Shown in pieces: positions 1 through 12,651 of a DNA stretch of 41,590 nucleotides. A program made the position numbers and the translations under genes. The notes under the pieces were generated by a model, which ran no database searches, was not told where the DNA came from, and worked only from the letters and a program-made list of their open reading frames with translations. Within the stretch, counting starts at the first letter, position 1; every line of letters starts with the position of its first letter. This stretch comes from a virus (taxonomy: Duplodnaviria > Heunggongvirae > Uroviricota > Caudoviricetes): the IMG/VR virus record IMGVR_UViG_2585427774_000008. The stretch is one strand, 5' to 3'.

Positions 1-1194
1 ATGATCACCGACACAAAGCTCAGGAAGGCGCTCGGCAAGAAAAGAGATGATATCGAGATTATTTCTGATTCGCACGGGCTCAACGCCAGAATCAGCCAGG
101 CCGGAAAAATATCATTTTTCTATCGGTATCGCTGGGCCGGTAAAGCGGTAAAACTCAATGTTGGTGATTATCCTGCAATGAGTATCACCCAGGCAAGAGA
201 GCGTCGCCAACAATTCAGAAACTGGTTAACTGAGGGACTGGATCCGCGAGAGCAGGTGAAGCTGGATAAGCAGACCCGACAGGAAGCGATGTCCGTTGCC
301 GAAGCGTTCAATTACTGGATTGAAAGGCACTGTATCGCTAACGGGCTAGTTAAAGTCGATTACTATCGCCAGGTGTTTGAGAAACATATCGCCGAACCGA
401 TGAAGAATGTCAAAGTCGATAACACAGCGAAAATGCACTGGATCAACGTCTTCGATTCTATAGAAAGCAGGGTGATGGCTCATTACATGCTTTCGCTGTG
501 CAAACGGGCGTTTAGGTTCTGCGTTAACAGAAGTGTGATCGCCTCAAACCCACTCGAGGGATTACTGCCATCTGATGTCGGGCAAAAGCCTAAAAAGAGA
601 ACTCGCAGGATGGACGATGACGATCTGCGCAAAATCTATCAGTGGTTGAAAAGCCATATGTCGATAGAGTCCGTTTTCCTGGTGAAATTTATTATGCTTA
701 CCGGATGCCGTACGGCTGAGATTCGACTTAGTGAGAGATCATGGTTTCGATTGGATGATAATGAGTGGGTCGTGCCTGCGGGCAGTTATAAAACTCGGGT
801 ACATATTAGAAGGGGACTCTCAGACGCCGCCGTTAACCTGGTCAGAAATCACCTCAAGAAAATAAACACCAATCACCTGGTGACTTCACAACGTAAAATT
901 GATGGCGGGATCAAAGATTCGCCCGTTCATTCACCTGTGGCATCCAATTACGCCCGTTCTATTTGGAATGGAACAGGTATGGCAGAGTGGTCGCTTCATG
1001 ATATGAGGCGGACGATAGCCACAAATCTCTCTGAGTTAGGTTGCCCGCCGCACGTAATTGAAAAGCTGCTCGGGCATCAGATGGTGGGGGTTATGGCGCA
1101 TTACAACCTTCATGACTATATCGATGATCAGAAACACTGGCTCCGCGTTTGGCAGAGCCATCTTGAAGAGATCATCGGAGAGCCCTTCAGTTAA
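1..1194 (+). CDS. int: Phage integrase (tyrosine recombinase)
   Basis: 397-aa ORF; C-terminal catalytic region typical of tyrosine recombinases (LHDMRRT...GHQ...HYNLHDY); window begins at its ATG. Confidence 0.9.
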
Positions 1195-1388
1195 TTTATC
1201 TTCTTTTTATCCTCCCACTCTTTGATTGACTCAGAGCGCCAGCGGTTAGGGTTGCCGGGCCAGTCAGGGGGTGGGAACGGGCATACGAAGCCCCGAGGCA
1301 TTGTGTCTGCACTTTGCCATGACCAAAGGGTTTTGCGTGAAATTTTGTAGCGACTGGTCAGGTCTGACGTTACCAAAATATCATCCAT
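1191..1388 (-). CDS. xis: AlpA/excisionase-like small DNA-binding protein
   Basis: 65 aa from ATG at 1388 preceded by GGAGAG SD; ORF track extends to a TTG at 1433; adjacent and convergent to int. Confidence 0.6.
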
Positions 1389-1429
1389 AGCTCTCTCCAG
1401 TTGCCCGTTCGGGCCATTCAAAATCTTTT

Positions 1430-1672
1430 TCAACCAACCTGCCCGGGCAGGGAGCGGAGACGGCGCATGCCGGTCATCGCTGTGGCCACGTAGCTCGCCT
1501 TTCGGTTCACCACCTCCACCCAGACTTTCACGCCTTCAACCTTCACCGTATAAGTCTCTTTCATCTTGCTTCGCCCATAGTCGCCATATGTTTGCAAGTG
1601 AGCTGCCAGCGCGATGTCGCATGCTTGGCGAGCTAAAGGTGATTGCTTACTTCCTCGATTGATCAGTCGCAT
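1430..1672 (-). CDS. Hypothetical early-left protein
   Basis: 80-aa ORF, ATG with AAGGAG SD upstream; same operon orientation as recombination genes. Confidence 0.5.
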   Translation of the reverse strand: MRLINRGSKQSPLARQACDIALAAHLQTYGDYGRSKMKETYTVKVEGVKVWVEVVNRKASYVATAMTGMRRLRSLPGQVG

Positions 1673-1710: not shown

Positions 1711-2829
1711 TCAGGCCACGTATTCCGGTTTCATATCCGCCAGGGTGATGCTGAATTGATCGTGCAGTTCATCGCCTAAGTGACGCTTTGAAGATGCAAG
1801 CATGCGCTCGGCTTCAGCGAACCGTTCGGCTGCATGCGGCTCGTCGGGCTGGGGCAGGGATTTAATAGCCTCCTCAACCTTGTTGCGTGCATCCACTAGG
1901 TAATAACGCTTTACGGCTTTGTTTTTCAGCTCGGTGAATAGTGCGGATCCCAGCGTAGCTTTCGCCGTTTCAATGTCGGCACGCAGCGATTTGGCGCTAT
2001 CCACGTCCTGAGCAGATTCGATGCGTTCGCGGAAATCATCGGCAAGAGAGTCGACATTTACCGACGATTCCTGTGCGCTTTGCGTGGTTGTGACGGTGTC
2101 ACCTGAGATATCAGCCAGGCTAACGCGTTGCGGCGTTGGGTTGATCTCTTTTTCTGTGCGCTGTTCAATCTCATCAGGGGTGTACACACCAAGAACAACT
2201 GCAGGGCAATACAGGCGCGCCCAGTATTTGAGTGCCAGATAAGCGATCTGCTGTTTCGGGTTTGATACCCAAAGTGGAGAATTACGTGTGATTACGCTGG
2301 AGAGGAAAACAGGCTCTCCCCAGGTGATATCACTTTCACCGCGAATAACGGCACCTACCCGTACCGACAGTCCTTGTTCATCAGCACTTTCCCAACCGCG
2401 TACCATTTCTTTCTTGTCGTACGTCCCGCCACCTTTCGCAGGCTTTTTAACGGTTATCTCGCGGCTGCTGGCACATTTCGACCAGTCGCCCTCGTACTCA
2501 TAGTGAAAGCGGCCAACGATGGCGTTTGAGCTGGAGATCACCGCATTAACCAGTTGCGCTTCGTATCCCAGGACACCGTTAACCAGGTGCGTCTTTTGCG
2601 CCACGGCGTAAGGGTTCATACCCCACTGCATCGCCTGCATGATGATGGCCATGCAGTCTGCCGGATTGCCGCGGAGGTGCTCAGGCACCGTTACGGCTGC
2701 CTGTGCCATCAACCCGGCGACAGACTGAAGCTGGGTTAAAGCCTGCACGTTGAAAATGGCATTGCTGGCTGAGATCGTGTTTGGAGTCTGCTGTTCAGCG
2801 GTTACGATATTCGTGTTTTCCATCATCAT
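1711..2829 (-). CDS. recT: RecT/Bet-family single-strand annealing protein
   Basis: 372-aa ORF; two segments resemble lambda Bet by recollection (ADCMAIIMQAMQWGMNPY vs AQFIALLIVANQYGLNPW); three tandem ATG codons at start, exact start uncertain. Confidence 0.8.
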   Translation of the reverse strand: MMMENTNIVTAEQQTPNTISASNAIFNVQALTQLQSVAGLMAQAAVTVPEHLRGNPADCMAIIMQAMQWGMNPYAVAQKTHLVNGVLGYEAQLVNAVISSSNAIVGRFHYEYEGDWSKCASSREITVKKPAKGGGTYDKKEMVRGWESADEQGLSVRVGAVIRGESDITWGEPVFLSSVITRNSPLWVSNPKQQIAYLALKYWARLYCPAVVLGVYTPDEIEQRTEKEINPTPQRVSLADISGDTVTTTQSAQESSVNVDSLADDFRERIESAQDVDSAKSLRADIETAKATLGSALFTELKNKAVKRYYLVDARNKVEEAIKSLPQPDEPHAAERFAEAERMLASSKRHLGDELHDQFSITLADMKPEYVA

Positions 2830-2834
2830 TCCCC

Positions 2835-5744
2835 TTATGCATGAGTACGCAGCGCTTCAAGGCGGCGCAGGTCGAAGTCGTTCAGTTCGTCGGTGTAGTC
2901 AGCAGTGATTGGCGCTGGCCATTCACCTGTGTCGAATCCGGTTGCGATATTGCGCATCGCTTTGCGGTACTCGAGCATACCCAGCTCCAGTAGTTCAGCG
3001 GATGCCTCGATGATGGCGATCCAGTGGTAGTTCTCGTCTTTGTTGACGAAAATCCAGAAGAACTGATCCAGCGCTGCGGTTTCGCAGTACATAGCCGCGC
3101 TCAGGTGATAATCACGTTCAATAATTTCCCGGTGTAGCCTGGCGCGCAGGCTTTCCTGCTTAACATTCCACATGCTGATGGTTTTCAGGTCAGCACCGAT
3201 ACGCACGCCGTCTAGGTCGATCTCAAGGTCAGGGCGCACACGAACTTCCAGTCCCGTCTCCTCGTCAAAGCCAAAGTAGCTCACCTCAACGGCGCGGCTC
3301 GGGTGGGTTAGCAGCATGCCTGCGGTCGGGTGCGAGAGCAGTGCTGACTGAATTGCCTGCGCGGTGGCAAGTTGCTGGTGGGTAACCAGCACTTTCCCTT
3401 CCGGGTTGTTGCGCCAAGCATCGAGCAGCTCGTCGGCGAACACTGCATCTGGTTTGACTGCCTTCACGGCCTGAATCAGATCGGCCTTCGTGCCAGAGAC
3501 TTTCAGCGGTTGCAGCTTCTGAGCTTCCTGCGCGACCAGGTCAGGATTGATAATCGCAAGTTGTTCGAGTAGTGCGTCGCGGCTGCCGCTGGTTTTAATC
3601 TGCGCTGGCAGGGTGGCGTTGTACTCTTTGATGCACGCCTTCATTGCTGTTGCTGTCTTCTTCTGATCTGCATCGATACGTTGGAATTCAGCTGGCAGCG
3701 CCATATAGTTCTGCGCCGTTTCATCCAGGCTAGCGCCCAGCGGCACCAGCGCTGGCAGGGTGGCGTTGTATTCATCCAGCAAAGCTTTGATATCGTCTGC
3801 GCTCAGTTGCGCTGGCAGGCTGGCGTTGTACTCATCAATAAACGCGCGGATCGTTGCCGTGGTGGTAAATGCACCTTCCGGAATTACGGGTTCAACGCTA
3901 AATTCTTCATCGAGCTGTTCTGGCTGCAACGCCAGCGCATGTACCAGGTTTCCCATGTCCAGCACTGAGGAGCGCTCTTTGACGATGGTTTTCTCAACGT
4001 GGCGCGCATTGAAGTACATCAGCGAAACGCGCGCATCTTTTACCTGGGTGGAACTGATGCCGTTGGCAGCGTGGTAAACCTCGTTCGGCAGACCTTCATA
4101 GCGCCCAGGCTCGAAGTAATCGGGGTAAAAAACAGCTTGTTCGTCAGATTGCGCCTCTGGCTCGACGTGTGCCAAAACTGGTTCAGTCTGGTTTACAGAA
4201 TCGCTATTTTGAGCGACAGATTCCGTATTTTGGTTTACATCGGCCTGCTGGCCGGGATGTGACTCTTCACCAGTTTCCAGACTGCTTTCGCCTGACTGCA
4301 TTTCATTACCAACATTTTTTTCATCACTGACAGTTTCTTGAACCTGCACATTGCTGGTGGTTTCCGTAGCCTGTTTCGTGCCATGAGTTGCTGAGTTCTG
4401 CAGTAAAGCCGTAACATCGAATATTCCGTTGCCGACATTTTTAACCAGTTCTTGTTCGGCTTTATGTGGTTGTGCTGTCGCTTCCTCTGCGCGGCGGCGT
4501 ACTTCTTCTTCACGTACGCGTTGCAGGTTCTCTTCGTGAGTGCAGAAGGGTTTGCGTGGAGACTCCTTACTTTCAGGTTGGGGAATTTCCTGTGTTGCGG
4601 GCTCAGCTTCATGCAATGGCAATAACTCAACAGCAGCATTAAACGCAGCAGTCATGGTCCGGTTAACAAACTCCAGGTGAGCGACAGGAGTTAGATGAAT
4701 ATTTTCCGGCGCGATACGTATCAGGTTAAAAATAGCTGTGCGGTTAACGCCAAGAACGCCGGGTTGATTGCGCAGAATGCTGCTCCATGATTTCCACGGT
4801 TTTTCTTTTTTGGTCACGATTTCTTTAGCGCGACGAAGAATGCTGCCCGGGATCTCGAAGTGGTTGAAGTTCATAGGCAGAAGGGCACATGCAATCTCTA
4901 AATCGAGAGTGTCAAGGGTATGGTATGTATCAGGTCCACGGTCAGTGACGTAACCGCCGTTGGCATTGGTTCCGGAATCAGTACGCTGAACACTACTGAT
5001 GTGATTACCGGCAGCCCATTCACGCGCCAGGATGCCACGGTCAATGTAATCAGTAGCCGCCCACATTCTGGTGAAACGGAGTACCAGCGCGAGTTCGTGA
5101 CGCTTGTCCTGGCTGAACACTTTGCGAATGGCATCGGTGTAGCGCCACAGGTCTTTGGTGTCGTAACCCTTCACTTCCGGGCAGTTCTCAGCAGCTAACA
5201 GCAAGTTCTGGACGTAACTGTTATCAGTGTCCATCTCCAGCGCGCCGATAGCTTCGTACTCTTCGCGGGTTACGTGGTGGCGCAGTTCGTCGGCGGTGAA
5301 CTGGGAAAGCAGTTGCTTACGAAACGGCATCTGCACTACCGGGTAGAGGGTTGAGTCGTCGTCGTGTTCGTCCAGCGTGATGCCAGCGGTTTCTGGCAGC
5401 GTTGACTCAGTAGTTATGTGACTATCAACGGTCTGAGCCGTTTTCTCGTCAGAGTTTTCAGCTGTGACTTTTGGCAGCCAGGTGCGGTCATCGTTCTGCA
5501 GTTCGTAGCGTTCGCACCAGGTGTAATCCACTGCGCCTTCTTCCGGCAGGTCGTCATATACCGGGAAATCGGTGCGGATTGGTTTGGCATAATCTTTACC
5601 GCGGCCAGTTTCTTCAATTCCGGCTTCTTCCAGTGCCACATCGAGTTGGAGATTGGCGCGCGCTACACTTTTCGCAGTGAACCAAATCACTGCATCTTTC
5701 TTGCCAGACTTCTGACTGGCTTTTATCAGATGGAAAAATTCCAT
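2835..5744 (-). CDS. recE: RecE-like exonuclease VIII (C-terminal nuclease domain)
   Basis: 969 aa from ATG at 5744 with AGAGGA SD (ORF track extends to 5849); large protein immediately upstream of recT as in Rac recET; contains internal tandem repeat. Confidence 0.65.
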   Translation of the reverse strand: MEFFHLIKASQKSGKKDAVIWFTAKSVARANLQLDVALEEAGIEETGRGKDYAKPIRTDFPVYDDLPEEGAVDYTWCERYELQNDDRTWLPKVTAENSDEKTAQTVDSHITTESTLPETAGITLDEHDDDSTLYPVVQMPFRKQLLSQFTADELRHHVTREEYEAIGALEMDTDNSYVQNLLLAAENCPEVKGYDTKDLWRYTDAIRKVFSQDKRHELALVLRFTRMWAATDYIDRGILAREWAAGNHISSVQRTDSGTNANGGYVTDRGPDTYHTLDTLDLEIACALLPMNFNHFEIPGSILRRAKEIVTKKEKPWKSWSSILRNQPGVLGVNRTAIFNLIRIAPENIHLTPVAHLEFVNRTMTAAFNAAVELLPLHEAEPATQEIPQPESKESPRKPFCTHEENLQRVREEEVRRRAEEATAQPHKAEQELVKNVGNGIFDVTALLQNSATHGTKQATETTSNVQVQETVSDEKNVGNEMQSGESSLETGEESHPGQQADVNQNTESVAQNSDSVNQTEPVLAHVEPEAQSDEQAVFYPDYFEPGRYEGLPNEVYHAANGISSTQVKDARVSLMYFNARHVEKTIVKERSSVLDMGNLVHALALQPEQLDEEFSVEPVIPEGAFTTTATIRAFIDEYNASLPAQLSADDIKALLDEYNATLPALVPLGASLDETAQNYMALPAEFQRIDADQKKTATAMKACIKEYNATLPAQIKTSGSRDALLEQLAIINPDLVAQEAQKLQPLKVSGTKADLIQAVKAVKPDAVFADELLDAWRNNPEGKVLVTHQQLATAQAIQSALLSHPTAGMLLTHPSRAVEVSYFGFDEETGLEVRVRPDLEIDLDGVRIGADLKTISMWNVKQESLRARLHREIIERDYHLSAAMYCETAALDQFFWIFVNKDENYHWIAIIEASAELLELGMLEYRKAMRNIATGFDTGEWPAPITADYTDELNDFDLRRLEALRTHA
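3600..3835 (-). repeat. Intragenic tandem repeat, three copies of gctggcagg(g/c)tggcgttgta encoding (D/K)EYNA(S/T)LPA
   Basis: Copies seen at 3605-3624, 3751-3770 and 3811-3830 on the + strand; protein repeats DEYNASLPAQL / DEYNATLPALV / KEYNATLPAQI. Confidence 0.7.
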
Positions 5745-5882
5745 GTGAGATCCTCTTTTTTGAGTGTTAGAATCCCCGGGCCAGAGATAGCGCCCATTGG
5801 ATGTTTTTTGGTTTGGTATAAATTCCGGTGTAACTTTGGTCGGTGGCACCGGACGTGAATCCCGCCTTGCGCGGGTTTTACG

Positions 5883-6044
5883 TTAGCCTTCGTGAGCCAT
5901 CTGGTCGTGCGAAGCGCAACGTTTGGAGCAATACTCTTTTTCTTTGCGCGCCAGCTGTGAGCCGTTGCGATAGAGAAGGGTGCTCTTGATTACTTCCTCC
6001 GTTTTAACCGGCTTGCCGCAATATCCGCATTTCTTGTCTAACAT
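5883..6044 (-). CDS. Small zinc-ribbon protein (YdaE-like position)
   Basis: 53-aa ORF not in track (MLDKKCGYCGKPV...CSKRCASHDQMAHEG); ATG preceded by GGAGGA SD; CxxC...CxxxC. Confidence 0.45.
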   Translation of the reverse strand: MLDKKCGYCGKPVKTEEVIKSTLLYRNGSQLARKEKEYCSKRCASHDQMAHEG

Positions 6045-6055
6045 GACATCCTCCG

Positions 6056-6262
6056 CTAGTGGCTGAGTCCATGCCCCAGACCGTTCAGATAAACTTCAAC
6101 CAGCAAATCCTTGGTGTAAGTCATTTCTACGCCGCGATGCAGATACAAACGTCCGCGAGCGTTAGCTGATGCCGTCCAGGTTGAGTCTTTGTGTTTGACG
6201 AGCATCCCCGGCTGAACTGCGCCGCGGTTTACTGTCTGTGTACCGTAGTGCTGATGAACCAT
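6056..6262 (-). CDS. Small early protein (kil-like position), hypothetical
   Basis: 68 aa from ATG at 6262 with GGAGA SD; ORF track long form starts at a TTG (6406). Confidence 0.4.
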   Translation of the reverse strand: MVHQHYGTQTVNRGAVQPGMLVKHKDSTWTASANARGRLYLHRGVEMTYTKDLLVEVYLNGLGHGLSH

Positions 6263-6505
6263 GATGTTCTCCAGTTTTTCTGAGTGAACTTCGCTGGTGG
6301 TGCCGCGGCGCTGATCTTCACGGTTGAGCGTTTTAACTCTGCAATTCACCACCGCGAAGCTCACTCTGTGCTTTGCCCTTGTCGCCAGGCTGGCGGAACG
6401 TTTCAAACCTACTGCGCGTTAATCTCACCACCTCATTCCGGTCTTCGTATGCCCCGGACGGCTTCTTCGTGGGCGTCCTGCTTTGGTGGTTGTGTTGATG
6501 GAGTA

Positions 6506-6545
6506 ATTAAACACAATGTTTATTTGCGTGTCAACATAATGAGTG
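6506..6545 (-). promoter_or_regulatory. Candidate PL promoter with OL operators
   Basis: On minus strand, consensus -35 TTGACA (plus 6529-6534), 17-nt spacer, -10 TTTAAT (plus 6506-6511); operator-like palindrome taaacacaatgttta (6508-6522) and half-site tcaacataatg (6531-6545) matching OR sites. Confidence 0.5.
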
Positions 6546-6646
6546 TTTTTATATAAACAAAAAGTTTAGTTGGTTGCGCTCGTTGGCACGAGTAGTATGT
6601 TTTGTGGTCTATTTTGTGGTTATAAAAAAATCGATGAGGGTGAGTT

Positions 6647-6853
6647 ATGGATCGTGACGAACTGGAAGAAGACCGCGCAGCGTTTATTGCGGGGGAGATT
6701 GGTGGCGCAGTTGTCAGTCTGATAGCTAACGGGATTGTGATCAGCCGCGATGCGATTGTGGATAGTCTAGAGGCTAAGCGCAGGGTAGTGGGAAACGTCA
6801 TTCACAAGTGGGTATTGCGGGATGCGGCTGCTATGGTGAGAAAAGGGCAATAA
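6647..6853 (+). CDS. Hypothetical small protein
   Basis: 68-aa ORF with GAGGGTGAG SD; followed by hairpin terminator. Confidence 0.45.
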   Translation: MDRDELEEDRAAFIAGEIGGAVVSLIANGIVISRDAIVDSLEAKRRVVGNVIHKWVLRDAAAMVRKGQ

Positions 6854-6889
6854 AAAACCCAGTTCGGTAACTGGGTTATTGCTTTATTC
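6850..6889. terminator. Bidirectional rho-independent terminator
   Basis: Hairpin aacccagt-tcggta-actgggtt (6856-6877); A-run upstream gives a U-tract on the minus strand, T-rich tract downstream on plus; sits between convergent genes. Confidence 0.55.
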
Positions 6890-7342
6890 AACAGATGATG
6901 GGGGGGTCGGTGCTTTCTTAAAGATCGACCACTGAGAAATGTAGGTCAGCAACCTTGAGCTTAACTCGAGTTCTTTTCGTAATATTTCGTCATAACGTTT
7001 TTTTGCTGCTTGCATGGTCGCATCACTAGCGTGATTGTCATCCATAATGATCTTTAGCCTTTTCTTTTCTCGGCTTGAGCATATTGTAAATAACAGACCT
7101 GTAAATGACATTCCACCAAAATCCTTTAACGTTTTGATTACAAAAAGAAGAATCAAAGACAGAAAAGGAACAGATCTGTAGGCCCAATCACGAAACTCAC
7201 CGTCAGGAAAGAAGATAGGAATAGCATCTGTAGCATAACCACATATGAGGGAGACAATTAGAAAAGGTAGTCCATTTTTAGCTACATTTTTAACGTTATC
7301 GTTAGCCATGATTTTTTCCCGAGAACGATTTCGAGTCAACAT
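6884..7342 (-). CDS. Small membrane protein (possible superinfection exclusion SieB-like)
   Basis: 152-aa ORF (141 aa from second ATG); hydrophobic segments LPFLIVSLICGY and VPFLSLILLFVI; located in immunity region downstream of repressor. Confidence 0.45.
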   Translation of the reverse strand: MLTRNRSREKIMANDNVKNVAKNGLPFLIVSLICGYATDAIPIFFPDGEFRDWAYRSVPFLSLILLFVIKTLKDFGGMSFTGLLFTICSSREKKRLKIIMDDNHASDATMQAAKKRYDEILRKELELSSRLLTYISQWSIFKKAPTPPSSVE

Positions 7343-7685
7343 GTAACTTTTGTGTTTTGACTACATAATACGCAAATCCAATCTTAACTAACCAATAAGC
7401 TACTGGTATGAGTGCTGCGTAAAGAGGGATATAGTACATAACCTTACCTCCTGTTAACCACACTATAACACCTAGCATCACTATTAGCGCGACAGAAAAT
7501 GCTTTCAGCCCAACACAGCTATCAGGATGTGAAACACTGTTCCTTAGCAACAATATCTTGGATTCATCAAGTGTGTAAGGAATATCGCCAACATGATTTT
7601 CGATTTTTGGGAAGGTCTCAAATACTTCAACCCGATCAATCGAAATAATTGAGCTTGATTGATGATCTAAGCAAACTGCAGCCAC
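7302..7685 (-). CDS. Hypothetical protein with C-terminal transmembrane segment
   Basis: 127-aa ORF from GTG located 2 nt after upstream stop; an internal ATG at 7439 has a strong AGGAGG SD and would give a 45-aa membrane peptide. Confidence 0.4.
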   Translation of the reverse strand: MAAVCLDHQSSSIISIDRVEVFETFPKIENHVGDIPYTLDESKILLLRNSVSHPDSCVGLKAFSVALIVMLGVIVWLTGGKVMYYIPLYAALIPVAYWLVKIGFAYYVVKTQKLHVDSKSFSGKNHG

Positions 7686-7687
7686 TG

Positions 7688-8011
7688 TTATCCCTCTCGA
7701 ACCTTTAGTGATACTCGGTTAGCAGCAAATGTGGCAATGAAACCACATTCTACACATATAACAGGGAATGCCCATATACCTCGGCCAGCTGAATGAGGTA
7801 GAGGAAGGGTAATTATTGCAGGATAGTCTTGACTATCTTCTCGTGGAGGAACTCCCCAAAGCGTATGCTTACAAAGCGGACAGGCCATCTCGCCATGTTT
7901 TTCTTCGAGGCGTTGAAAATAATCTCCAAATTCTTGTCTTGATATTGATAGCGTCAATGCTGTTGTATTGACACTTTCCTGACTTTTTTCTTCTTCAACC
8001 TGTTCGCCCAT
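7688..8011 (-). CDS. Zinc-ribbon protein, hypothetical
   Basis: 107 aa from ATG at 8011 (track starts at TTG 8023); CPLCKH and CVECG motifs. Confidence 0.5.
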   Translation of the reverse strand: MGEQVEEEKSQESVNTTALTLSISRQEFGDYFQRLEEKHGEMACPLCKHTLWGVPPREDSQDYPAIITLPLPHSAGRGIWAFPVICVECGFIATFAANRVSLKVREG

Positions 8012-8122
8012 CTCAGCTCTCAATATAATGATAATTAACTGGTAAGTGAATTTTGCATATCGTTAAGATGTATCCCATTGGTACAGAAACATCTGAGGGG
8101 TAAGTAGCTTTTAACTACCGTG

Positions 8123-8518
8123 CTACTCACCATCCCCCTTAATCCGCCGTCCCATGTACTTGGCGTACAGTTCATCGAGTTCTTTCAACCGTAGAGATAC
8201 GATCCGCAACATGTTCTGTTGTTCTTCTTCGTTTGGGAGTTGATTATAGAGTTCCAACAGTCTCCGTTCGTCGTGTCTCAAACCGTCCTTAGCATCCACG
8301 TCCTGACCTAGAACCCACTCAAGACTTACGCCTAGCGCATCGGCAAGTTTTATTGCTGAGCTTTTTCCTATCGCTCCTCTGACAAACCAGTTGTTGACTG
8401 ATTGTGCGCTCACACCACAGATTCTCGCTATATCCGCTTTGGATATGCGCTTCTTCTCGATGATTTCATTTAACCGCCGAACCTGCGGGTTATCTGTTTG
8501 GTGTGTGTTTTTTCTCAT
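8123..8518 (-). CDS. HTH (XRE-family) prophage repressor, RacR/CI-like
   Basis: 131-aa ORF; HTH segment ISKADIARICGVSAQSVNNW; divergent from cro-like gene; no SD before ATG (likely leaderless); no S24 peptidase domain evident. Confidence 0.8.
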   Translation of the reverse strand: MRKNTHQTDNPQVRRLNEIIEKKRISKADIARICGVSAQSVNNWFVRGAIGKSSAIKLADALGVSLEWVLGQDVDAKDGLRHDERRLLELYNQLPNEEEQQNMLRIVSLRLKELDELYAKYMGRRIKGDGE

Positions 8519-8526
8519 ATATCAAG

Positions 8527-8594
8527 ATTCTAAACTAAAAGTTTATCGCCTCAACATTCATAATGTTGACTTTAATATAAACATAATGTTTAAT
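8527..8594. promoter_or_regulatory. OR region: divergent PR/PRM-like promoters with two operator palindromes
   Basis: Perfect palindromes TCAACATTCATAATGTTGA (8551-8569) and TAAACATAATGTTTA (8578-8592); plus strand -35 TTGACT (8566-8571) and -10 TTTAAT (8589-8594); minus strand -35 TTGAGG (plus 8549-8554) and -10 TAGAAT (plus 8527-8532) ending about 7 nt before the repressor ATG. Confidence 0.6.
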
Positions 8595-8621
8595 TTGGTT
8601 CGTTATTACTTGGAGCCAAAT

Positions 8622-8855
8622 ATGAAAGCACTTGATAAAGCAATATGCATCGTAGGGGGTGCAACCCGTTTAGCAGAAAAGCTCAATGTATCCCCAATGA
8701 CGGTCAGTCACTGGCGTCACCGTGACAATGGATTCGTACCGGCTAACCGTGTCATTCCTATTTTCAATGCTACAGGTGTAACTCCACATGAGTTACGCCC
8801 TGATTTGTACCTCAACCCTACGGATGGGTTACCAGCTCAGGAAGCGGGGGCATAA
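8622..8855 (+). CDS. Cro-like HTH regulator, YdaS family
   Basis: 77 aa from ATG at 8622 with GGAG SD (ORF track N-terminal extension rejected); MKALDKAI...GGATRLAEKLNVSPMTVSHW resembles YdaS/Cro-like proteins. Confidence 0.75.
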   Translation: MKALDKAICIVGGATRLAEKLNVSPMTVSHWRHRDNGFVPANRVIPIFNATGVTPHELRPDLYLNPTDGLPAQEAGA

Positions 8856-8857
8856 CC

Positions 8858-9397
8858 ATGCAGTCACTGTCACTTCATCAAAATAGCGGATATCAACCGG
8901 CTGCGATGATAAATCGCAATCAACCTGTCTCGGTAGATAAACATGACCAGATCCGCGATGCCGTTCGTGCGTGGGCGGGTGTAGATGGTCAGGATGTCGT
9001 TTCTGCTCTGATCGTCGAAGAGTACCGGGCGAAGGGTGGTGACGAGATTACTTTCCCTAGCGATCTCAGCCGACAGCGTCAGAAGCTTTTCCGCTTTCTC
9101 GATAACCATTTCAATAGCGAGCGGTACCGCGAGAACGTTCGTCAGTTGACGCCGGCAATTCTTGCTGTTCTGCCGCTCGAGTTCCGCAATCGCCTGCTAC
9201 CAGAAGACAACGTTATGGCCCGTCTGGCTCGGCTGGAGAAAGAAACCAGCGAAGCGAAGATTGCCGTCGCGATGAATGCTCCACGTCATCAGAAGCTGAA
9301 AGAGTTGAGCGAGGGGATCGTGGAGATGTACCGCGTTGACCCTAGCTTAACCGGTCCATTGATGGAGATGGTGCAGATGATGCTGGGGGTTGTATGA
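8858..9397 (+). CDS. YdaT-like regulatory protein (cII-position)
   Basis: 179-aa ORF immediately downstream of YdaS-like gene, same arrangement as Rac ydaS-ydaT. Confidence 0.5.
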   Translation: MQSLSLHQNSGYQPAAMINRNQPVSVDKHDQIRDAVRAWAGVDGQDVVSALIVEEYRAKGGDEITFPSDLSRQRQKLFRFLDNHFNSERYRENVRQLTPAILAVLPLEFRNRLLPEDNVMARLARLEKETSEAKIAVAMNAPRHQKLKELSEGIVEMYRVDPSLTGPLMEMVQMMLGVV

Positions 9398-12013: not shown

Positions 12014-12033
12014 TACTGTATAAAAACACAGTA
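12014..12033 (+). promoter_or_regulatory. LexA (SOS) box overlapping promoter of dinI-like gene
   Basis: TACTGTATAAAAACACAGTA matches CTGT-N8-ACAG consensus; overlaps a TATACT -10 candidate about 20 nt upstream of the gene. Confidence 0.7.
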
Positions 12034-12051
12034 AATGCAATGGGGGCCATT

Positions 12052-12285
12052 ATGAAAGTTGAATTAACCATTGATCGCATGAAAGAACTTCCTAAAGGCG
12101 CAGTACCAGCACTGGAGAAAGAACTGCTTAAGCGCCTGAATGATCACTATGACAATTGCAGGCTCACAATCCGCCGTGCCGGGGCCGATGGGTTAAGTGT
12201 TTTTGGTGGTGACAAGGACGATAAAAAGAAAATTGAATCAATCCTCCAGGATACCTGGGAAAGCGCTGACGACTGGTTTTATTAG
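12052..12285 (+). CDS. dinI: DinI-family protein
   Basis: 77 aa from ATG at 12052; MKVELTIDRMKELPKGA...ILQDTWESADDWF closely resembles E. coli DinI as recalled. Confidence 0.85.
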   Translation: MKVELTIDRMKELPKGAVPALEKELLKRLNDHYDNCRLTIRRAGADGLSVFGGDKDDKKKIESILQDTWESADDWFY

Positions 12286-12402
12286 AATTGCGCTTAAGGC
12301 TGGCGCGCATTTTTCAGAATACCGCAATTTGCGTAACCCTCTGATGCTGCTGCCGACAATCTTTAATCGCGTCTGTTAGTCGCTCGAAGGGAGAACATAA
12401 AT

Positions 12403-12651
12403 GTGAGTGATTCAGCTTTGCAAACGTCAGAAGACAACTGGTATGACATTGTAAGAAGGTCTGACGGCTGCGTGGTGTTTAGCTTTCCTTCATCGGGCAG
12501 GCATCTAATTTATCGCGTCAATGGCATGGTTTCTATGCGGCCTTTGCTGGATGATGAAGAGGTCTTTACTCCTAATGGTTTTATGCAGTTTATTCACCGT
12601 CTCGGCTACCGGGTAACCCCACCTTCTGATAATATGAAATCAACGGTCTGA
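12403..12651 (+). CDS. Hypothetical protein
   Basis: 82-aa ORF from GTG with AGGGAG SD. Confidence 0.4.
   Translation: MSDSALQTSEDNWYDIVRRSDGCVVFSFPSSGRHLIYRVNGMVSMRPLLDDEEVFTPNGFMQFIHRLGYRVTPPSDNMKSTV

Follow-up and report, generated by a model that had tools for sequence, protein, structure and literature searches.

Gene order and the leftward operon

The window, by which we mean the whole 41,590-nt stretch of DNA analyzed here, is a lambdoid prophage of the Rac/Gifsy kind from E. coli, with its gene order read from annotation and family searches (Table 1). Positions 6000-9000 are 99.6% identical to three complete E. coli chromosomes. The preliminary description gave the content of the leftward unit as kil-like, Zn-ribbon, recE, recT, and xis, and family searches bore this out as Kil, YdaE, RecE, RecT, DUF4060, and excisionase. 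Kil is 34% identical to Rac KilR, and its counterpart in mEp237 is annotated Kil. Our scan found no minus-strand terminator-like site between 6500 and 1160, the interval from the predicted leftward promoter PL to xis, and a single promoter can thus serve the whole leftward unit. The int gene is read toward the xis-recT-recE operon from the opposite strand and shares 4 nt with the end of xis, whereas in lambda and Rac int follows xis on the same strand.

The prophage repressor has a helix-turn-helix only; the Pfam search returned no Peptidase_S24 match, that is, no S24 cleavage domain. Its match to the DicA subfamily is weak (E=1.6e-6, below the curated cut-off), and its similarity to RacR is confined to the helix-turn-helix (11/27 identities), which does not make it a RacR orthologue. 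No relative was found in the PDB by sequence; with no relative of solved structure, the oligomeric state and cooperativity that we propose for it below are guesses.

The stretch between the left operator cluster (OL) and the repressor gene (6884-8011 here) is a hotspot of swapped cargo, while OL and the right cluster (OR) stay intact. At that place E. coli WEM25 carries a HicAB toxin-antitoxin and a small membrane protein (locus L003, 2370-3759), and a Klebsiella phage carries an IS1 insertion (locus L092, 2956-4268). In the window, the terminator-like hairpin at the OL side of the cargo genes would halt the repressor/cargo transcript short of OL. The 68-aa gene reads away from the operator OL3, and a -10-like TAGTAT (6593-6598) and a hairpin (6578-6593) are kept in relatives despite changed sequences. 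As the OL3 center would lie about 44 bp upstream of a start at TAGTAT, the repressor might regulate the 68-aa gene too.

Table 1. Features of the prophage, in window coordinates.
Feature	Position	Strand	Basis or remark
int	1-1194	+	Annotation/family searches
Excisionase (xis), last gene of leftward unit	1191-1433	-	phrog_1553 excisionase, E=1.4e-33
DUF4060 gene, before xis in leftward unit	1430-1672	-	DUF4060 family match
recT	1711-2829	-	Pfam RecT, E=2.5e-36
recE (exonuclease VIII)	2835-5849	-	Pfam Exonuc_VIII and PDDEXK-like domain; RefSeq annotation of 99.6%-identical relative
ydaE-family small protein	5883-6044	-	NCBIfam YdaE_coli, E=4e-27, above curated cut-off
kil (FtsZ-inhibitor type), first leftward-operon gene	6056-6262	-	phrog_294, E=2e-34
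Conserved three-helix RNA	6427-6490 (64 nt)	-	Covariation; starts at about +10 of predicted PL transcript
PL candidate -10 TTTAAT	6506-6511 (read 6511..6506)	-	17-nt spacer; overlaps OL1
OL1, perfect palindrome TAAACacaatGTTTA	6508-6522		Overlaps spacer and -10 of PL; 14/15 match to OR1
PL -35 TTGACA	6529-6534 (read 6534..6529)	-	Pattern search; overlaps OL2
OL2, degenerate asymmetric site CACTCattatGTTGA(C)	6530-6545	-	GTTGA half is part of PL -35
OL3, perfect palindrome TAAACaaaaaGTTTA	6554-6568		Upstream of PL; 14/15 match to OR3 (8531-8545)
68-aa gene, function unknown	6647-6853	+	phrog_3975
Terminator-like hairpin	6856-6877	-	9-bp stem, then TTTTATTG on minus strand
Three cargo genes of unknown function	6884-8011	-	
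Prophage repressor, 131 aa, helix-turn-helix only, distantly DicA-like	8123-8518	-	Pfam HTH_3 and Phage_CI_repr
OR	8527-8594		OR3 8531-8545, OR2 8555-8570, OR1 8578-8592
PRM candidate TTGAGG-16-TAGAAT	8554..8527	-	
PR	TTGACT 8566-8571, 17 nt, TTTAAT 8589-8594	+	
cro-like ydaS, first gene from PR	8622-8855	+	Pfam YdaS_toxin, E=8e-16; weak P22_Cro match
cII-like ydaT	8858-9397	+	Pfam YdaT_toxin, E=7e-26
Replication genes O and P	To the right of ydaT		
LexA box TACTGTATAAAAACACAGTA, near-consensus	12014-12033	+	Directly upstream of dinI homologue
dinI homologue	12052-12285	+	DinI Pfam match, E=4e-26
82-aa ORF, candidate antirepressor	12403-12651	+	Position after dinI

Two operator clusters with matching predicted promoters

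The exact pattern TAAAC-N5-GTTTA occurs four times in 41.6 kb compared to 0.04 expected, a count reached in 0 of 100 shuffles. Two copies lie on the left (6508-6522 and 6554-6568) and two beside the repressor gene (8531-8545 and 8578-8592). The near-copy of a right-cluster palindrome reported in the preliminary description is present as stated, with taaacacaatgttta (6508-6522) differing from taaacataatgttta (8578-8592) at one position in 15; its partner is OR1 in the numbering used here. The description also reported an OR1-like half-site. The sequence in question, tcaacataatgagtg, does occur at 6531-6545; we find it to be a full degenerate operator that pairs with OR2, as CACTCATTATGTTGAC (6530-6545, minus strand) matches CATTCATAATGTTGAC (8555-8570, plus strand). 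Allowing up to two mismatches, the pattern CAYTCATWATGTTGAC finds only these two positions in the window, both exact, compared to 0.09 expected. OL thus holds three sites rather than the two described, as the palindrome at 6554-6568, just beyond the stretch considered earlier, had been missed. Measured by operator centers (6515/6538/6561 for OL and 8538/8562/8585 for OR), the two clusters are about 2.0 kb apart and not 1.6 kb.

Both clusters follow the same order, O3, O2, O1, along their own promoter. Read in the PL direction, OL is TAAACtttttGTTTA - 8 nt - CACTCattatGTTGA - 8 nt - TAAACattgtGTTTA, and OR, read in the PR direction, is TAAACtaaaaGTTTA - 9 nt - CATTCataatGTTGA - 8 nt - TAAACataatGTTTA, with center-to-center spacings of 23 + 23 bp and 24 + 23 bp, respectively. 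In each cluster the asymmetric O2 gives the -35 and O1 overlaps the -10. Compared site by site, OL and OR agree at 13-14 of 15 positions, whereas the spacers between sites are unrelated. This confinement of the likeness to functional elements points to constraint rather than recent duplication.

The elements of a minus-strand promoter at OL, namely a perfect TTGACA -35, a 17-nt spacer, and TTTAAT, can all be read in the sequence as described earlier. Calling it a consensus promoter overstated the case, since its -10 carries T at the normally invariant second position: TTTAAT agrees with TATAAT at 5/6 positions, and the mismatch falls on the most conserved base. Our promoter/terminator scan needs A at position 2 of the -10 and for this reason lists neither PL nor PR; the promoters were therefore checked by pattern search and conservation. 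With up to one mismatch, TTGACA-N17-TTTAAT occurs in the window only at PL (exact) and at PR (8566-8594, one mismatch), compared to 0.18 expected.

Given the T at position 2 and the rejection by the scan, the exact -10 register and start site of PL are uncertain, and alternative registers are present as TGtTTAATT (18-nt spacer) and TAATTA (19-nt spacer). TTTAAT is favored as the -10 because its final AT, although beyond the operator, does not vary among relatives. From this register we infer a transcription start near 6499.

At OR, a PRM candidate faces the repressor gene, and OR3 overlaps its -10. Because this candidate ends 8 nt before the repressor ATG (8518), the repressor mRNA would be leaderless or nearly so, as is that of lambda cI.

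Conservation across related loci and the leader RNA

All four perfect palindromes are kept in three Citrobacter species and one Raoultella strain with repressors 94-99% identical to that of the window. In these relatives the OL-OR distance ranges from 1.7 to 2.6 kb, the central N5 varies, and other or additional genes lie between OL and the repressor gene. OL is also kept in E. coli WEM25 with the HicAB module in that position, and OL1-3 and TTGACA-17-TTTAAT are kept in Klebsiella phage ST974-OXA48phi18.2 (repressor 93.9% identical) with IS1 in between. The variable distance and cargo indicate that recombination does happen between the clusters.

Using the Kil protein, we fetched 80 viral loci, 46 of which encode a relative of the window repressor. 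Four operator types are found among the 46: TAAAC-N5-GTTTA, GTAAA-N7-TTTAC (the mEp237 type), TAAG-N7-CTTA, and TAAAC-N5-ATTTA. The type upstream of kil equals the type beside the repressor gene in 46/46 loci across all four types, a count inflated by shared descent because OL and OR form one inherited module. Citrobacter werkmanii locus L008 agrees as well, with TAAG-N7-CTTA at both clusters. Shared descent also inflates the count from a wider scan of 61 distinct OLs: in 30 of them, two or more sites at OL have a counterpart 0.6-2.7 kb upstream, a cluster of two or more sites with identical half-sites. Operator type follows the repressor: relatives with at least 94% identity have the same operators, and those with 60-66% identity have other operators.

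Some GTAAA-N7-TTTAC relatives carry a second repressor gene right behind their own (L013, 4027-4422; L043, which is mEp237, 3244-3636; L074, 3552-3944). The second repressor of L013 is identical to the window repressor at 130/131 positions, and L013 is without any TAAAC-N5-GTTTA site. Judged by sequence, it looks like borrowed cargo, which would immunize the lysogen against phages of the window's immunity type.

The phylogenetic footprint rests on 14 type-A OL sequences and 12 OR sequences, each set free of duplicates. There are no variable columns in the half-sites of O1 and O3 (save one OL3 base), the GTTGA half of O2, the PL -35, or TTTAAT. The CACTC half of O2 varies slightly, and the PR -35 varies in 2/6 columns. 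Variability is high elsewhere, with 6-7 of 8 spacer columns, 23/25 columns of the upstream flank, and 29/30 columns of the downstream flank variable. Heteroimmune relatives and SfV carry TTGACA or TTGACT in the corresponding position. Homology to mEp237 spans kil and its leader and ends at about 6514, inside OL1; this is a classic immunity-region boundary, as expected at the edge of such a region.

Conservation extends past the promoter. Heteroimmune PLs are followed by a conserved version of the first ~75 nt of the predicted PL transcript, and an alignment of 54 distinct 74-nt versions (A2) supports a three-helix RNA. In A2, 93.7% of cells are paired, compared to 23-49% after the 3′ partners are shifted by 1-3 columns; both sides change in 10/14 pairs; and 81 cells carry double changes, compared to 18.8 +/- 7.8 in shuffles. 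Covariation is seen in the outer helix (CCACC/GGUGG, UCAUC/GAUGG, GCGAA/UUCGC) and in the third helix (UCCGG/CCGGA, CCCGG/CCGGG, CCGAC/GUCGG), and the presence of G-U pairs makes the structure specific to the PL-sense strand. Folding energy lends it no support, since the minimum-free-energy fold of the first 86 nt is unexceptional (z = -0.08); the case for the structure comes from covariation.

A covariance model (R1) built on the element has a single strong match in the window (6421-6494, minus strand, 95.5 bits) and finds one copy upstream of kil in 47/80 loci. Strong R1 matches (82-86 bits) were obtained in SfV and ST64B, where the RNA lies just after cI and heads the early-left operon. Upstream of the SfV copy are the cI terminator and a TTGACA-18-TAATGT promoter that carries SfV-type operators. 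With R1 we found no match in HK022 or Rac and no second copy downstream of PR. By blastn, the RNA sequence occurs in 41 phage records, including SfII, SPN3UB, and Yersinia and Pantoea phages, mostly in unannotated DNA, with a few matches overlapped by a hypothetical-protein call. An Rfam search of the whole window at gathering thresholds returned nothing, and one of 6200-6660 at E up to 5 returned only chance snoRNA matches. Homology to the HK022 put element was considered and rejected, as there is no blastn similarity to the HK022 PL-nun region, no R1 match, and no resemblance on reading putL itself.

Whatever its function, the RNA supports the assignment of PL: loci of five unrelated operator types all place a TTGAC(A/T) promoter a short way ahead of it, at much the same distance. 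A strand-specific conserved RNA that starts about 10 nt past the predicted start further argues that leftward transcription at this place is under selection.

Closer to kil, the leader also holds a long hairpin (6282-6366, minus strand) with a stem of ~20 bp (GAGUGAGCUUCGCGGUGGUG ... CACCACCAGCGAAGUUCACUC), just 5′ of the kil ribosome-binding site. This hairpin dominates the predicted fold of the ~237-238-nt kil leader (z = -2.3) and could be a processing or translational control site.

Interpretation and comparison with known systems

Based on these features, 6506-6568 is very probably the OL/PL of a Gifsy/Rac-like lambdoid E. coli prophage, under control of the prophage repressor. The proposal in the preliminary description that the leftward operon answers to the same repressor as OR gains computational support from the mirrored sites, the 46/46 concordance, and the footprint.

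We weighed three other readings. OL might mainly serve a rightward promoter of the 68-aa gene, or only loop to strengthen repression at OR, without gating leftward transcription. OL3 does adjoin the -10-like TAGTAT (6593-6598), which is kept in all type-A relatives examined, the gene belongs to a phage family (phrog_3975), and lambda OL assists OR through looping. However, the rightward candidate -35 is poor, lies in the flank with 23/25 variable columns, and is absent from the promoter scan list, and in heteroimmune relatives without the 68-aa gene (mEp237 is one), OL still overlies a TTGAC(A/T) -35. As the invariant TTGACA and TTTAAT and the leader RNA are all leftward, we consider this reading unlikely. 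Doubt about the promoter itself leads to a different alternative, in which PL, with a -10 that lacks the -11 A, does not work as a promoter, transcripts enter the operon from the repressor operon by read-through or begin at some other start, and the palindromes are roadblocks or relics. The T at position 2 of the hexamer and the silence of the scan on both PL and PR speak for it. Yet PR and mEp237, the latter recorded as a complete phage genome, have this hexamer or TTTACT in the same register, and the SfV copy of the leader RNA is preceded at an equal distance by TTGACA-18-TAATGT. The PL hexamers are invariant across relatives, and a terminator-like hairpin (6856-6877) closes the repressor operon, making a nonfunctional PL very unlikely in our view.

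The sites might instead be read by another regulator, either the CII-like YdaT or the Cro-like YdaS only, and not by the 131-aa repressor. Both are DNA-binding proteins encoded beside OR, and Cro proteins normally share operators with their cognate repressor; sharing with YdaS would extend the main explanation rather than displace it. In the case of YdaT, the published box TTGATT-N6-AATCAA (PMC11879457) is unlike TAAAC-N5-GTTTA, and no YdaT-like box was found near OL. Since operator type follows the identity of the repressor homologue, a regulator other than the repressor is the least probable of these readings, and barely credible.

Under the reading that we favor, control of PL by the prophage repressor, dimers of the 131-aa protein would bind the 15-bp sites OL1, OL2, and OL3 in the lysogen with the same TAAAC-N5-GTTTA specificity as at OR1-3. 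With OL1 over the -10 and spacer of PL and OL2 over the -35, RNA polymerase would be excluded, and kil-ydaE-recE-recT-DUF4060-xis would consequently stay silent. The placement of a weak middle site between two perfect ones at 23-bp spacing suggests cooperative filling as in lambda. After induction, the Cro-like YdaS probably uses the same sites.

As the repressor is without a cleavage domain, derepression most likely runs through an SOS-controlled antirepressor encoded at 12014-12651, which would free OL and OR together. The LexA box and dinI homologue downstream of the replication genes reproduce the Gifsy layout (PMC3121763). In Gifsy prophages, LexA-controlled antirepressors strip uncleaved repressors off DNA; recE-lacZ fusions are repressed in the lysogen, and both recE-lacZ and cII-lacZ are derepressed on induction (PMC3121763). 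The 82-aa ORF, our candidate by its position, is conserved in mEp237 (97.6% identical) and SEN34, and family searches returned no match to any antirepressor or other known family. Taken together, this layout suggests that induction probably takes a Gifsy-type SOS/antirepressor route, without repressor cleavage.

The parallel with lambda OL/PL drawn in the preliminary description holds for the sequence features that can be tested. As in lambda, three operators share the OR consensus at 23-24 bp spacing, with O1 over the -10 and O2 over the -35; the cluster lies beyond the repressor gene and cargo, ~2 kb from OR, at the left edge of the exchangeable immunity region; and its promoter heads a recombination/excision operon. 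The parallel breaks down at N/nutL and the type of repressor. Family searches found no N-like family among the ORFs, there is no nutL, and the first gene is kil behind a leader with a different structured RNA. The operators are 15 bp here and 17 bp in lambda, the -10 here is TTTAAT, and the 131-aa helix-turn-helix repressor is without the S24 self-cleavage domain. Having neither a cleavable CI nor N/nutL, the system is not a strictly lambda-type one.

By layout and its short non-cleaved repressor, the system appears to fit the Gifsy type best. Gifsy-1, -2, and -3 of Salmonella (GogR/GtgR, GfoR, GfhR) likewise have a short uncleaved repressor of the DicA/RacR group and a recE-recT-xis left operon with its promoter 3′ of the repressor gene; in Gifsy this promoter (PG2L) is repressed by the repressor (PMC3121763, PMC6797219). 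In both systems a LexA box adjoins a dinI homologue beyond the replication genes, and a small gene comes next. The Gifsy-2 left-operon promoter, 3′ of gtgR, has been used as a GtgR-repressible promoter (PMC6797219).

Rac of E. coli K-12 (RacR/YdaS/YdaT, kilR, recET) is similar in having YdaS and YdaT on the right and kil, ydaE, recE, and recT on the left. It differs in its operators (TAGGC..GCCTA), in its repressor, of which the one here is not an orthologue, and in its kilR leader, which cannot be aligned with the leader described here, has no three-helix RNA, and has an annotated sRNA, KilS. We therefore dropped the transfer of the KilS transcription start to this leader; our literature search found no usable published account of KilS. 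In the Rac locus (L089), a 35-nt inverted copy of the racR-ydaS operator/-35 region, 83% complementary, lies ~600 bp to the left, just 3′ of racR (3130-3182, with the paired part at 3148-3182, versus 3783-3817). This mirrored copy appears to be the OL/PL of Rac, for which we found no published description, and it suggests that the OL/OR design is general in the group.

With regard to the leader RNA, the nearest likeness is to HK022 putL, and it concerns the RNA only: putL also measures ~65-75 nt, has two hairpins, starts within ~10 nt of the PL start, and belongs to an N-less phage. In contrast, the leader RNA here has a closing third helix and no second copy downstream of PR. The put RNA of HK022 makes RNA polymerase termination-resistant via the beta-prime zinc-binding domain. 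Where the leader RNA lies, how little its loops vary, and the lack of N in this phage together suggest that it acts in cis and binds a conserved target in the host. We tentatively hypothesize, with limited confidence, that it is a cis-acting antiterminator for N-less lambdoid phages in the role of nutL/N or putL, which would let PL transcripts resist Rho or terminators and reach recET and xis. Our search of the literature turned up no relevant work on put-like or cis-acting antiterminator RNAs in lambdoid prophages, and an earlier description is possible (e.g., King 2011, put-like RNAs).

In our analysis, OL/PL is an ordinary left switch of known lambdoid design, and the leader RNA is the only unexpected feature nearby. 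For an immunity type common in E. coli, Citrobacter, and Klebsiella prophages, the assignment defines the operator sequence (TAAAC-N5-GTTTA), the arrangement of three sites, and the limits of the immunity region, which is useful for annotating prophages, typing their immunity, and designing repressible promoters such as the Gifsy-2 PL tool. The four related repressor/operator pairs, with one or two base differences per half-site, form a series for studying how helix-turn-helix specificity evolves. The leader RNA is of larger potential value than OL/PL itself. Should it prove to be an antiterminator, early antitermination would have a third solution, widespread and found across different repressor families, and the expression of the long left operon in many N-less temperate phages would be explained.
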